A DNA stretch of 64,000 nt from an uncultured Planctomycetia bacterium. Lineage in GTDB: Bacteria > Omnitrophota > Gorgyraeia > Duberdicusellales > 4484-171. The position numbers and the translations under genes were made by a program. Location: NCBI GenBank assembly GCA_964629655.1, contig CAZVQU010000001.1:484056-548055 (forward strand). Reading direction: 5' to 3'. Shown here in pieces: positions 24,025-38,446 of this stretch; position 1 is the first letter of the stretch, and each line of letters opens with the position of its first letter. The notes beneath the pieces were generated by a model that saw nothing but the letters and a program-made list of their open reading frames with translations, ran no database searches and had not been told where the DNA came from.

Positions 24025-24309
24025 TTATTCAATAACCTTAGGGATTTTAAAATAATCGCCTTCCCGAGATGGGGAATTTCTTAAGATCTCTTCCCGGCAG
24101 TCAGAAGGTATAGCTTTATCCTCACGGAAGACATCTCGGGTAATATGTGCTCCTCTTGAAGGCTGGACCCCGGCTACATCCAGCTCTTTTAGCTTATCAA
24201 TGTAGCCGATAATTTTAGAAAGCTGTTCTTCTAAAGAACTCTCTTGCTGGAGAGTTATCTTTATCCTGGCTAAATTAGCTACATATTCTACATCTTTTTT
24301 TCCAGCCAT
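24025..24309 (-). CDS. gatC: Glutamyl-tRNA(Gln) amidotransferase subunit C
   Basis: ~94 aa, gatC-type, immediately upstream of gatA. Confidence 0.75.
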   Translation of the reverse strand: MAGKKDVEYVANLARIKITLQQESSLEEQLSKIIGYIDKLKELDVAGVQPSRGAHITRDVFREDKAIPSDCREEILRNSPSREGDYFKIPKVIE

Positions 24310-24395: not shown

Positions 24396-25940
24396 CTATG
24401 AGGGGCGTAATTTACCTCGAAAGAGGGTGAGTTCCAAGAATGTCTGAAGCCGACGTGAGCGGCTAGGACGCCTTAATTTCTTCAATGCTTTGGCTTCGAT
24501 TTGTCGTATGCGTTCACGGGTAACTTTAAAAATGGTTCCCACTTCTTCTAAGGTTTTAGGGCTGCCATCTTCTAGGCCAAACCTTAAAGTAAGGATATTC
24601 CTTTCGCGATCAGTTAAACTATCCATAGCCTGCTCTAGTTCTTCTTTGAGCATAGAAAATACAGTAGCATTAGCCGGCGACACTGCTTTCTTGTCCTCAA
24701 TGAAATCACCAAAAGAAGTATCTCCATCATCGCCAATAGGCGTATGTATCGATATCGGCTGCTGAGATACCTTAATGATATCCTTTATCTTAGTAACCGG
24801 AAGCCTTAACTCTTTGGATAACTCCTCCGGTGTAGGTTCTTTTCCTTTTTCTTGGATAAAAAGCCGTGAAATACGAATTATCTTATTAATGGTCTCGGTC
24901 ATATGCACAGGGATCCTAATCGTCCGAGCCTGATCAGCGATAGCCCGAGTTATTGCCTGTCTTATCCACCAAGTAGCGTAAGTAGAAAACTTATATCCTC
25001 GCTTATATTCAAACTTCTCTACGGCTTTGATAAGGCCGATATTGCCCTCTTGAATTAAATCTAGAAAGGAAAGGCCACGGTTTACATATTTCTTAGCTAT
25101 ACTCACTACTAACCGCAGGTTTGCCTCAACAAGCGTACTCTTGGCTTGATTATAAAGCGTAGCCTTGTTAAGAATAGCCCGCATCTTATCTTTTACTTCT
25201 TGATCACCAAAGCCTAATTTTCTTATTAGCTTATTCCTCTCTCTTACTAAAGACCTTTTCTCTGTAGCCTTCTTGCTGCTTTTACCCTTTATTTTTTCAA
25301 TCCTTCTTCTTAACTTCTCAGACTCCCGAACGATATTTCTGGTCTTAATAATGATTTGTTCGATAATTCCAATAGTGAAGTTGAATTCTTTTAAAACATT
25401 CTTCTGGCTTCCGATTTTTTTAATTCTCGACAGCTTACCATAAAGCTTTTTTATCCTTTTTATCTCCTTCTCTTTACTCTTAATCTCACCCTTAACAAAA
25501 TCGTCAGGGTTAAGCTGATCTTTAATTAATTGCTTAGAAATGTTTATAAAGGTATCCCGGGATATACCTGTAGAAAATACCTCCTCGCGCAAAATCTCTT
25601 CAGCATCTTCGATTTTCTTCGCCAACCTTATCTCTTCATCGCGAGAAAGCAAAGGAATTTGCCCCATCTGTTTTAAATACATCTTAACCGGATCATCTAT
25701 AGGCTGGGTGGTAGGAGTAACCTGTTTTTTCTTCTCCTTCTCCCACTCCGGAACCTCTTTAGCCTCTAGAACACTTATATCCTTAGTGTCTAAATGCTCA
25801 AAGATAGTATCTAAAGCCTTGGCGTTTATTATCTCTTCGGAAAGAAAATGATTTATTTCATCGTAGGTAAGATAGCCTTTTTTCTTTCCCAGCTCGACTA
25901 ATTGCTTAATGCTTCTGTCTAAAAGTTTCTTCCTAACCAT
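24396..25940 (-). CDS. rpoD: RNA polymerase sigma-70 factor RpoD
   Basis: Regions 1.2-4.2. RpoD box [17 protein letters not shown]. Confidence 0.9.
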
Positions 25941-32980: not shown

Positions 32981-33067
32981 GCGAGGGTGGCGGAATTGGC
33001 AGACGCACTAGCTTGAGGGGCTAACGGTAGCGATACCGTAGGGGTTCAAGTCCCCTCCCTCGCACCA
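32981..33067 (+). tRNA. tRNA-Leu (anticodon GAG)
   Basis: 87 nt. Acceptor GCGAGGG/CCCTCGC. Anticodon loop TTGAGGG. Long variable arm. T-arm GGTTCAAGTCC. CCA encoded. Confidence 0.85.
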
Positions 33068-35185: not shown

Positions 35186-36151
35186 TTAATGCGTTTCTTT
35201 ACCTTTCTTCTTAAACAAATCCAGGAATTTATCCTCATATTCCTTATAGACATTCCAGCGGTCAAGCTCACCCTTTAGCTTATTAGCTAAAGTTATATCT
35301 TTCCCGGCGTCGCTGAAAAGCTTTTCTATTTCTTTACGGGCTGATTGGGGTAGCTTTGTGTAGGCAGCTAAATCTTTTTTGATCTTATCAATATCGTCAT
35401 CGCTTAAGGGGCTATGTCCCGGAGTGGGGGTTTCTCCTTTCAAGTAAGTTATCAGCTTATCTATTTCCTCTTCAATAAACTTACTGCGAGAGGCTATCGA
35501 AGTAAGATTCAAATCTACTTTAAGATACTTGCCCATTGCTTCTAAAATACTACGAGTTGCCTTAGGATTTTCGATTTGAACAGTATAAAAAGGGATCTCT
35601 CCTAATAAACATACCCCTTTTATAGATTTCTTCTTTCCTACGCCCAAAATAATTCCATTAAGCCCACTTACCTGGCCTTCTTTCAGAACTTTTAAGTCAA
35701 GCTTCTCTAAGGGCTTTAGGAGTTCGCCGTGGGTTACCGCCACCCATACCTTAGACTTACTCTTATGGTCAATCGGCTCGGGTTTAGCTGCAAAGGTAAA
35801 CATCTGGTTTACTTTATACTTCCTTATAAAATTAACAATCATCAAAGATAAGGCTTGAGCATATTCTAATGGCGGCTGTACTTCGCCTAAGAAAAGAATT
35901 ATATCCGGTGATTTCTTGCCTTTATGGTAGTAGAAGAATCCGGCTGGCATTTCAGGAATATTAAGGACTCCCTTTTCTACAGATACTGCTGCTGGTTTAA
36001 AGAATTGTGGAGCTTGAAGCTTAGCAAAAACCTTAAACTCTAAAACCTCCTTTAAAAAAAGAGCAGCCCGGTAAGCTACCTCCCCCATTCCTGGCCAAGC
36101 AGCGATAAAAATTGGATTCTTTAGTTTTGGTGAAGCAATTTCTTTAATCAT
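35186..36151 (-). CDS. PAC2-family-like protein (start at ATG 36151 preferred over the TTG at 36175)
   Basis: IAAWPGMGEVA N-terminal motif and size consistent with bacterial PAC2 family. The tracked ORF begins at a TTG with no SD. The ATG at 36151 has a weak GGTAGAG upstream. Confidence 0.4.
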   Translation of the reverse strand: MIKEIASPKLKNPIFIAAWPGMGEVAYRAALFLKEVLEFKVFAKLQAPQFFKPAAVSVEKGVLNIPEMPAGFFYYHKGKKSPDIILFLGEVQPPLEYAQALSLMIVNFIRKYKVNQMFTFAAKPEPIDHKSKSKVWVAVTHGELLKPLEKLDLKVLKEGQVSGLNGIILGVGKKKSIKGVCLLGEIPFYTVQIENPKATRSILEAMGKYLKVDLNLTSIASRSKFIEEEIDKLITYLKGETPTPGHSPLSDDDIDKIKKDLAAYTKLPQSARKEIEKLFSDAGKDITLANKLKGELDRWNVYKEYEDKFLDLFKKKGKETH

Positions 36152-36185: not shown

Positions 36186-36356
36186 AATAAAAAACCCCGC
36201 CATTTATCCGTTACAGGCGATCGCTATCAGTTTCTCATCTCTACACGTGGGCGCCGCATCTTTCCCGCCTAGGCAGTAAGAAATATTAGCTCCCTTATTA
36301 ATGGCGTTAGCTGTAGCGTTCTGACCTGCTATCGCGATAGGCAGGGTTATTTTCAT
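36186..36356 (-). other. Orphan transcription unit: candidate sRNA, cis-regulatory leader, or leaderless 50-aa Cys-containing ORF, ending in a G-rich/U7 terminator-like tail
   Basis: A ~170-nt GC-enriched segment from the predicted TSS to GGCGGGGUUUUUUUAUUU. It contains the near-perfect 21-bp palindrome CCTGCTATCGCGATAGGCAGG (36325-36345). An AUG at the predicted TSS opens MKITLPIAIAGQNATANAINKGANISYCLGGKDAAPTCRDEKLIAIACNG. Confidence 0.3.
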
Positions 36357-36360
36357 ATCT

Positions 36361-36389
36361 ATTATACCACTACCTTTTTGTTTTTTCAA
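36361..36389 (-). promoter_or_regulatory. Strong sigma70-like promoter (-35 TTGAAA, 17-nt spacer, TGgTATAAT) with no annotated gene directly behind it
   Basis: Minus strand TTGAAAaaacaaaaaggtagtggTATAAT. It lies 50-75 nt downstream of the pheT stop. Confidence 0.45.
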
Positions 36390-36439
36390 TCTAGACACTA
36401 CCCCGCTACAAAAATATCTTCAAGCGAACTAAGGAATCT

Positions 36440-38446
36440 CTAACGTAAGCTCACACCTTCTTGTTGGCTTAAGCTTTGCCTTATCTGGTTGTGAAAAGAA
36501 TCAACTTCGCTAGAGACAAGAGTCTTCTCAGTTGATTGATAAAAAATCCTTAAGGTGAAAGCCTTATGCTCCGGGGGGATATCTTTACCTTTATAAACGT
36601 CAACAATAGTCAACCCAGCCAGATAATTACCTTTGGCTTTGATAATCCCTTCAATCTCTTTAAATTTTATAGATTTCTTTAAAGAAATACTTATGTCTCG
36701 CCATATAGCCGGATAAGAACTAAGAGGTTTGTATTTCTTCTGGCCCCTGATTTTTACGCAAAGCGATAAATCTAATTGAGCGAAAAATAAGTTTTCTTTT
36801 AAGCCAAGGTTTTTCTTTTGCAGTTGATCTAACTTGCCCATGAATCCTAAATTACGATTCCCGACACTGACTTTCAAAGAGTTGGTAAAGTTATTTAAAG
36901 AGCTCTCCTTAAATTCGAAGCTGCTTATATTGAGGAAGTTCAAGATTCTTTCTATGGCGCCTTTTAAAAGAAAAAAATCATCATCTTTGCCGCTGATAGC
37001 TAAGGCTAGGGTAGGAGTTTCCAGAAAGCCTTTGCTATTTTTAGAATAGGTATCAGCTATTTCAAATAACCATAGACTACCTTGGTTACCTGTGCCGGTT
37101 AGGGCGCGATTCAAATTATGCCGCAGGCTCCTAGCCATTCCAAAAAGCAAATTGCTCCGCAAGGCATTCTCTTGGCTACGCAAAGGATTGATAAGTTCTA
37201 TAACATCTTTGTCTTCTATTCTTAATTGCTCTTTCTCCTCTAAGCTATAGGTGATTATCTCTTTAAATCCCAGCAGAGCTGCAAGGTTCGCCAGCTCTCC
37301 TTTAAAATGGTAGTAGTCTGTTTGACTAGAAATAGTTAAATTCCTCTTCAGAAATGGAATCTGAGCCGGTATCTTATCGTACCCGTAGATACGGGAAAAC
37401 TCTTCATAAACATCAACCTCGCTGTTAATATCAAACCGAGAACCCGGAGGCGAAACCACTATTCTATTTTTAGATAAATCCTTTACCTTAAAATCAAGGC
37501 TCTGGAGAATCTTCTTTGCCTCAAGCTTAAGAGTCCTCAGGCCTAAATAAGCACCTAAGGCATCGAAGCTTATTGTTATATTCTTTTTTGCTAATCGGGG
37601 TCTCTTACCGGCGGCCTTATACCCCTTAATTTTCCCTCCACTTACATCAGCTATTAATTTAGCAGCTTCGCAAGAAGCATGTTCTAGCAGGTGAGGCGAA
37701 ACCATTCGTTCAAAACGATAGGAAGACTCTGTATCCAGGCCAGCGGCTCTTCGAGAACGTCTCACGGTCAAAGGAGAAAATACTGCTGCTTCAAGAAAGA
37801 TATTATTGGTGGTTTTAGTTACCTCTGTATTTTTGCCCCCGATAATTCCGGCTAAAGCAATTACCTTCTTACTGTCAGCGATTACTAAGTTCTCTTTACC
37901 TAAAACTCTTTCCTTACCATCAATTCCCACCAATGACTCATTTTTCTTCGCTCTACGTATATAGATATTGCCCTCTAATTTATCAGCATCAAAAGCATGC
38001 AAGGGATTGCCCCATTTAAGCATAGAGTAGTTAGTAATGTCTACGGTGTCATTAACCAGGGTAAGCCCACAATTTAGAACTCGCTCTCGCAACCAAGCTC
38101 CAGATTCAGATACTCTTACCCCCTCTATTCTTCTACCAATGTAATAAGAACAATCTCCCTTATCTTCGATTAGAATATCTCTTGTTGCAAGAAGAGGTTT
38201 TGTAATTGAGACCGGGTAATTAACCTTTAACTTCTTTCCTAAAATAGCAGCTATCTCTCTGGATATCCCTAATATTGAGAGCCAGTCATACCTATTAGTA
38301 GTGACCTCAATATCAAAAATCCAATCTGAAAGCCCCTTCTCTAGGCCTTCGACCTCCATGCCGGCCATAGTAAGAAGAGAGGCCAACTCTCTAGGTGAGA
38401 TATCCACCTTTAAAAATTCCTGAATAAAATTTAAACTGAATCTCAT
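36440..38446 (-). CDS. pheT: Phenylalanine-tRNA ligase beta subunit (short form lacking the N-terminal OB/tRNA-binding domain)
   Basis: B1 start MRFSLNFIQEFL, then B3/4, B5 and FDX-ACB regions. 668 aa versus ~800 for the long form. Confidence 0.9.
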   Translation of the reverse strand: MRFSLNFIQEFLKVDISPRELASLLTMAGMEVEGLEKGLSDWIFDIEVTTNRYDWLSILGISREIAAILGKKLKVNYPVSITKPLLATRDILIEDKGDCSYYIGRRIEGVRVSESGAWLRERVLNCGLTLVNDTVDITNYSMLKWGNPLHAFDADKLEGNIYIRRAKKNESLVGIDGKERVLGKENLVIADSKKVIALAGIIGGKNTEVTKTTNNIFLEAAVFSPLTVRRSRRAAGLDTESSYRFERMVSPHLLEHASCEAAKLIADVSGGKIKGYKAAGKRPRLAKKNITISFDALGAYLGLRTLKLEAKKILQSLDFKVKDLSKNRIVVSPPGSRFDINSEVDVYEEFSRIYGYDKIPAQIPFLKRNLTISSQTDYYHFKGELANLAALLGFKEIITYSLEEKEQLRIEDKDVIELINPLRSQENALRSNLLFGMARSLRHNLNRALTGTGNQGSLWLFEIADTYSKNSKGFLETPTLALAISGKDDDFFLLKGAIERILNFLNISSFEFKESSLNNFTNSLKVSVGNRNLGFMGKLDQLQKKNLGLKENLFFAQLDLSLCVKIRGQKKYKPLSSYPAIWRDISISLKKSIKFKEIEGIIKAKGNYLAGLTIVDVYKGKDIPPEHKAFTLRIFYQSTEKTLVSSEVDSFHNQIRQSLSQQEGVSLR

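Follow-up and report, generated by a model that had tools for sequence, protein, structure and literature searches.

A probable 6S RNA gene between pheT and a PAC2-family gene in a Candidatus Omnitrophota bacterium

Introduction

6S RNA is a rod of 160 to 200 nt with an enlarged internal loop that binds the σ70/σA holoenzyme and templates a short product RNA, the pRNA (PMC8414754; PMC3847290). Promoters and 6S RNA are rivals for the RNA polymerase that contains the housekeeping sigma factor, and the RNA is released when the enzyme makes the pRNA from it (PMC8414754; PMC3847290). In C. jejuni and H. pylori, the 6S transcript and a 13-nt pRNA have both been detected experimentally, and the C. 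jejuni RNA, encoded upstream of purD, had initially been taken for a purine riboswitch (PMC3847290). Mycobacterial Ms1, an abundant structured small RNA, also interacts with RNA polymerase, but it binds the sigma-less core and is not matched by the 6S model (PMC4191392). We found no literature on 6S RNA in Omnitrophica. The RNA is said to be mentioned in a planctomycete study.

The element described here lies on the minus strand of a 64,000-nt stretch of DNA (the window), in the interval of 264 nt that separates pheT (36440-38446) from a PAC2-family gene, the identities of both neighbors being confirmed by Pfam. We interpret it as the probable ssrS gene encoding the 6S RNA of a Candidatus Omnitrophota bacterium, a reading to which we give a probability of about 0.92 from sequence and structure comparisons. 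Like other RNAs of the 6S/SsrS family RF00013 (E. coli ssrS; B. subtilis 6S-1/bsrA), it gives a full-length model match, measures about 160 to 165 nt, folds as a rod with G-C pairs flanking the bubble, follows a strong housekeeping promoter, and is non-coding. It departs from them in the sub-threshold score of the window member and in an apical arm shorter than the consensus. A U-tract also follows the closing stem in almost every member of this clade, and the genomic context is pheT and PAC2 or rarA, not ygfA. As in the epsilonproteobacteria C. jejuni and H. pylori, where 6S RNA is encoded upstream of purD, we see a stand-alone, σ70-driven gene just upstream of a protein gene, although phylum, sequence, and neighbors differ and the present element is known from sequence alone (PMC3847290). 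The rod, the promoter of its own, and the putative terminator at the end recall the 6S RNAs of lactic acid bacteria (PMC8414754), and rarA/mgsA adjoins the element in two related loci (L016 and L041). However, 6S lies downstream of rarA in lactic acid bacteria and upstream of it here, and rarA is absent from the window locus; the shared neighbor may reflect coincidence or an old linkage. The resemblance to Ms1 is that of one structured small RNA to another, but the present element and its orthologs, unlike Ms1, are matched by the 6S model.

Results

Promoter and 3′ end of the unit

An earlier note on this DNA had pointed to a near-consensus promoter followed by a GC-enriched segment ending in GGCGGGG and a U7 tract, and had read the whole as a small RNA (sRNA) gene, a riboswitch-like leader, or a leaderless mini-ORF. 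The promoter (TTGAAA, 17 nt, TGgTATAAT) is present on the minus strand at 36389-36361, and the segment is indeed enriched, with a G+C fraction of 0.49 (36189-36350) against about 0.35 to 0.40 in the flanks. GGCGGGG is found at its end, but the U7 tract is not: the sequence there reads T6-A-T3 (36200-36185), i.e., U6 interrupted by an A. The arrangement of promoter, body, and end is conserved as a whole unit in 38 other genomes, which places it beyond chance. The elements at the borders of the RNA are as follows.

36384-36389, minus strand: -35 hexamer TTGAAA
36361-36369, minus strand: extended -10 element TGgTATAAT, with the TATAAT hexamer at 36366-36361
36351-36356, minus strand: predicted start region and short 5′ leader, 5 to 10 nt after the -10 element
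36189-36194, minus strand: U6 tract, directly after the closing stem, likely the 3′ end or a terminator

With 11 of 12 matches plus the TG, the promoter is the best σ70-like site in a 12-kb scan. TTGAAA-N14-TGNTATAAT at ≤1 mismatch has a single match in the 64-kb window, compared to 0.13 expected by chance. Among the 38 matched promoters of relatives, TTGAAA is aligned in 30, the 17-nt spacer in 33, the TG extension in 36, and TATAAT in 28; promoter and U-tract are kept in about 37 to 38 of 39 sequences. The stretch between the -10 element and the first base of the closing stem is, by comparison, unconserved and ranges from 6 to 33 nt in relatives. It varies in both length and sequence. The ATG located at the predicted start has no conserved role.

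The extended -10 element GTGGTATAAT has two exact copies in the window, against 0.06 expected. As the earlier note had remarked, the second copy lies near gatC: it occupies 24339-24330 on the minus strand, in the 86-nt gap from rpoD (24396-25940), which encodes the primary sigma factor RpoD with regions 1.1 to 4, to gatC (24025-24309). This copy is probably the gatCA promoter.

At the other end of the unit, 38 of 39 sequences have at least five T residues among the first 8 nt that follow the closing stem. A simple terminator scan nevertheless did not call the 3′ end, as it found no compact hairpin before the U-tract. The only strong stem partner of GGCGGGG is situated about 145 nt upstream, which accounts for this blank result. 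The 3′ end of E. coli 6S RNA is made by nuclease trimming. In the present clade, the closing stem of almost every member runs straight into the U-tract, which suggests a 3′ end made by termination; the long-range closing stem would then serve as the terminator stem, or else the U-tract may be a processing or stability element.

Orthologs and consensus structure

Eighty loci were retrieved from species-representative genomes by means of the PAC2 protein. Their record titles were mostly Candidatus Omnitrophota, the others comprising about 20 "uncultured Planctomycetia," a few "bacterium," and one "Methanosarcinales archaeon." An nhmmer search with the 210-nt unit found it in 38 loci and in the window's own duplicate contig (E values of 1e-46 to 1e-13). 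The resulting alignment of 39 sequences, termed A1, has a mean column identity of 75%. RNAalifold applied to A1 returned a closing stem (columns 4-18 with 148-164), a short helix (columns 25-26 with 142-143), an internal stem (columns 34-43 with 123-134), a central bubble, and an apical stem with its tip hairpin (columns 59-65 with 101-107). Transferred to the window, the parts of the RNA are as follows.

36189-36350, minus strand: body of the putative 6S RNA (ssrS), backed by the RF00013 match, the covariance model R1, and orthologs above the gathering score
36333-36347, minus strand: closing stem, 5′ strand (ACCCUGCCUAUCGCG), pairing with 36194-36210 and corresponding to the 5′ half of a near-palindrome
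36309-36318, minus strand: internal stem, 5′ strand (CGCUACAGCU), pairing with 36222-36233
36295-36308, minus strand: central bubble, 5′ strand (AACGCCAUUAAUAA), 14 nt, unpaired in the consensus structure
36249-36294, minus strand: apical arm, GGGAGCU (36294-36288) pairing with GGCGCCC (36255-36249)
36287-36256, minus strand: irregular tip hairpin, part of the apical arm
36234-36248, minus strand: central bubble, 3′ strand (ACGUGUAGAGAUGAG), 15 nt, unpaired in the consensus structure
36222-36233, minus strand: internal stem, 3′ strand (AAACUGAUAGCG), from the consensus structure
36194-36210, minus strand: closing stem, 3′ strand (CGGAUAAAUGGCGGGGU), from the consensus structure

Compensatory changes were seen in 15 of the 32 pairs and, once four apical pairs were added, at 18 of 36. 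In A1, 96.3% of the paired cells hold standard pairs, compared to 34 to 48% when the partners are slid by one to three columns, and the covariation score is 0.245, compared to at most 0.093 in these slid controls. None of 500 shuffles reached the observed pairing and covariation values, a significance that is overstated because the A1 sequences are kin; the slid-partner control is free of that weakness. A comparative alignment had been suggested in the earlier note as a way to distinguish base-pair covariation from codon-pattern conservation, and it is the former that was seen.

The body measures 157 to 164 nt across the sequences, with a predicted transcript of about 165 nt here. The two helices of the closing stem are 98% paired across the 39 sequences, four pairs being changed on both sides, and the internal stem has compensatory changes in four of seven pairs. 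The 5′ strand of the bubble is 13 to 14 nt long in 37 of 39 sequences, with a family consensus that begins AAcAcc and is preceded by the stem bases gCc, and the 3′ strand is 14 to 15 nt long in 34 of 39 (consensus ACtTgtatgag...). In the apical arm, the GGG/CCC pairs are invariant, while the tip helix has changes on both sides in seven of eight pairs. The minimum-free-energy fold of the single transcript agrees with the consensus: it is a long rod with its two ends paired (-53 kcal/mol; z = -2.4).

The covariance model R1 was then built from A1. Sense strands score 122 to 167 bits with it and antisense strands no more than 28 bits, making the strand clear; the minus strand of the window, where the element is present in a single copy, scores 160 bits. 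In the 41 remaining loci, R1 detected no element within 3 kb on the upstream side of PAC2; in those genomes, 6S RNA must be encoded elsewhere or be too divergent.

Assignment to the 6S family

A default scan of the window at the Rfam gathering thresholds returned three tRNAs only and no 6S RNA. The earlier note had proposed an Rfam scan with 6S among its listed models, and a permissive scan of the 501 nt around the unit did yield RF00013 as the sole meaningful match among 4227 families. The match covers 36190-36350 on the minus strand and model positions 1-187, with 34.9 bits and an E value of 1.6e-5, or about 2e-3 by our own scaling to the 64-kb window, which is significant but sub-threshold. 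The curated gathering score of RF00013 is 46.4 bits, an operational cut-off and not a biological property; the window element scores below it and was therefore missed by the default scan. In the RF00013 alignment, the conserved ends of the closing stem (CCCUGC ... GCGGGG) are present, and the G-C pairs apical to the bubble are conserved (GGGAGC ... GCGCCCAC). The shortened apical arm explains part of the low score.

We also scanned 20 orthologous loci at the curated threshold. Five pass as 6S RNA (L042, 51.9 bits; L015, 49.7; L041, 49.2; L023, 47.5; and L011, 46.6), and the remaining 15 fall below. The five are close to the window element by other measures, with nhmmer E values of 1e-17 to 1e-30 against it and R1 scores of 145 to 167 bits. 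Consequently, the ortholog group belongs to the 6S family by Rfam's own criterion, even though the window member falls short of it. The size and shape are those of a 6S RNA as well, i.e., a rod of about 160 to 200 nt with a closing stem, a large bubble, and an apical stem-loop. The sRNA gene suspected in the earlier note was thus a correct reading, which the Rfam match, the orthologs, and the covariation now make specific.

An RNA could have the 6S shape and act otherwise, either as a base-pairing regulator or, like Ms1, by binding core polymerase or another protein. The score of the window member below the 6S gathering threshold would be in keeping with this, and non-classical rod-like RNAs with internal loops do exist, as exemplified by Ms1 (PMC4191392). 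Yet orthologs of the same element exceed the curated 6S threshold, the match runs the full length of the model and takes in the conserved G-C pairs on either side of the bubble, the size and position of the bubble fit 6S RNA, and no other Rfam family was matched. We consider such a different mode of action very unlikely.

Palindromes and the 5′ hairpin

The 21-bp near-palindrome reported earlier exists as a 21-nt sequence on the minus strand (CCTGCCTATCGCGATAGCAGG, 36346-36326), and the short palindromes GCGATCGC and CACGTG are likewise present. The latter two were considered as operator sites and rejected: they are not kept as palindromes in relatives and so look incidental. The near-palindrome can fold into a local 5′ hairpin, and 35 of 39 sequences can form a comparable one, in shifting registers and with a median of -7.2 kcal/mol; this hairpin and the 6S closing stem exclude each other. 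In a fixed register, this hairpin is 86.6% paired and shows no covariation beyond shuffles (318 of 500 were as good). As it lacks covariation support, we claim no function for it; it may arise as an intermediate of folding or simply from the complementarity of CCUG and CAGG. One could further imagine that the closing stem, spanning about 145 nt, acts as an intrinsic terminator stem with the conserved U-tract, and that the 5′ hairpin is a co-transcriptional switch setting the 6S stop versus read-through into PAC2 or rarA, but we regard this combination as unlikely.

The 50-codon frame

One further feature overlaps the RNA.

36204-36356, minus strand: 50-codon ORF, a chance frame inside the RNA gene

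The frame is exactly as it had been quoted, opening with an ATG at 36356-36354. It had raised the idea of a leaderless mRNA that would encode a cysteine-containing peptide of 50 residues (MKITLPIAIAGQ...), to which the uninterrupted 50 codons and the position of the ATG 5 nt past the -10 element lend some appeal, as do long frames in L020 (49 aa) and L008 (58 aa). The comparison with relatives gives a different picture. At the position of the start codon, close relatives have ATA, GTA, TTA, or TAA; in-frame stops interrupt the aligned frame in L002 to L006, within the first few codons in L003 to L005, and the longest sense ORF in the last three is only 7 to 20 aa. Indels that are not multiples of three occur in 33 of 38 relatives, including a 1-nt deletion in the bubble strand of L002. 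Substitutions are spread evenly over the codon positions (e.g., 7/5/6 in L002), without a third-position bias, and nucleotide conservation tracks base pairs, not codons. The ORF has no Pfam match and no Shine-Dalgarno sequence, and its decay is already apparent in relatives whose PAC2 protein is 85 to 96% identical. By these alignments, the 50-codon ORF is not a conserved coding sequence and the element is non-coding; the mini-ORF reading is almost certainly wrong.

Neighboring genes

The upstream gene is pheT in 32 of 39 loci. In the seven others it is not, the genes at the loci read encoding acetolactate decarboxylase (L041) and amine oxidase (L057). On the downstream side, PAC2 follows directly in the window and in about 14 loci, while in most of the remaining loci, from more distant relatives, the element is situated about 1.5 kb upstream of PAC2. 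The intervening gene in two such loci that were read is rarA/mgsA, encoding an AAA+ ATPase (L016:1662-2912 and L041:1614-2858). The flanking genes thus vary while promoter and U-tract are kept, which argues for an independent gene and not a leader of the PAC2 operon.

Some features of the window and of L045 would fit a cis-acting leader, i.e., a riboswitch or a terminator/antiterminator attenuator controlling the downstream PAC2-family operon. The PAC2 ORF starts mechanically at a TTG (36175) but is recorded elsewhere only as a 321-aa product from an ATG at 36151, so that the gene probably starts at 36151, only about 37 nt past the U-tract. With this start, a promoter-like site at 36175-36147 overlaps the start codon and is probably spurious; the promoter scan gave no convincing separate PAC2 promoter, and in L045 PAC2 is joined directly to the promoter of the unit. 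On the other hand, a leader would hold a fixed position and form an exclusive terminator/antiterminator, but here the gene that follows is not the same in all genomes: in most of the more distant relatives about 1.5 kb separate the element from PAC2, and in the two loci read (L016 and L041) the gene in between is rarA/mgsA. Promoter, body, and U-tract remain intact in the seven loci where the upstream gene is not pheT. Moreover, no riboswitch model was matched in the permissive scan of about 500 nt around the unit with the 4227 Rfam families, and the structure kept by the orthologs is one rod, for which no alternative pairing has covariation support. The earlier riboswitch prediction for C. 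jejuni 6S RNA was a misprediction made on the same positional grounds (PMC3847290). Taken together, these observations make a leader highly improbable and speak for a 6S RNA gene. Read-through into PAC2 in addition to the 6S function is possible. In E. coli, ssrS is co-transcribed with its downstream gene.

Several other features of the region were noted. At L045:2910-3005, the PAC2 start codon comes immediately after a shortened unit that consists of the 6S promoter and the first 55 nt or so of the RNA, ending with the 5′ bubble strand (CCAACATTAATTT); the 3′ two-thirds of the 6S gene and the U-tract are absent. This is either a natural deletion that places PAC2 under the 6S promoter or an assembly artifact. 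In the window, a tRNA-Leu (GAG) on the opposite strand (32981-33067, plus strand) closes the cluster formed by PAC2, YjeF_N, a metallo-beta-lactamase-fold gene, and a 238-aa gene. A tRNA of 81 to 84 nt recurs on the opposite strand a few kilobases downstream of PAC2 in at least 11 relatives, so the block appears syntenic across the clade. The same pheT-6S-PAC2 order, with PAC2 proteins 77 to 96% identical, is found in L006 (JAIWAR010000023.1), L002, L003, L007, and others; those contigs, titled "Methanosarcinales archaeon" or "uncultured Planctomycetia," are likely mis-binned or mislabeled Omnitrophota.

Discussion

By homology with characterized 6S RNAs, the strong σ70-type extended -10 promoter would drive a non-coding RNA of about 165 nt, predicted to form a long, irregular rod made up of a closing stem, an internal stem, a two-sided bubble, and an apical stem-loop. 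The rod would mimic the melted DNA of an open promoter and, in RNA polymerase bound to the primary sigma factor, fill the cleft of the active site. The RpoD encoded in the window is the candidate for that factor. Polymerase occupied in this way would damp housekeeping transcription during a slowdown of growth. Once nucleotides are available again, the polymerase would copy the 5′ bubble strand and the internal stem into a short product RNA, which would refold the 6S RNA and free the enzyme. Expression, the exact transcript ends, polymerase binding, and product-RNA synthesis are all predictions of this model.

The template can tentatively be placed. A conserved CCAACACC (CUAACGCC in the window) is located at the junction of the internal stem and the 5′ bubble strand, with the stem sequence GCGCUACAG just upstream. 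From the alignment, the E. coli product-RNA start would map near 36306-36310, within the CCAACACC segment, and the 5′ strand of the internal stem is likely the template region. With the start in CCAACACC and the template running into GCGCUACAG, the product RNA is predicted to begin roughly 5′-GUUAGCUGUAGCG.

With this element, a known family gains a new, sub-threshold member, which is unsurprising, and no new biological question is opened by the identification. Its value lies mostly in annotation, as it assigns a known global regulator to a gap that had no annotation. At the default Rfam threshold, 6S RNA goes undetected here and in roughly three of every four related Omnitrophota genomes scanned, whereas the clade-specific alignment A1 and model R1 find it unambiguously, at 120 to 167 bits. 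The relatives include two complete chromosomes, of 1.3 and 1.8 Mb. For the biology of the group, the finding indicates that these uncultivated bacteria keep the growth-phase control circuit formed by 6S RNA and RNA polymerase.
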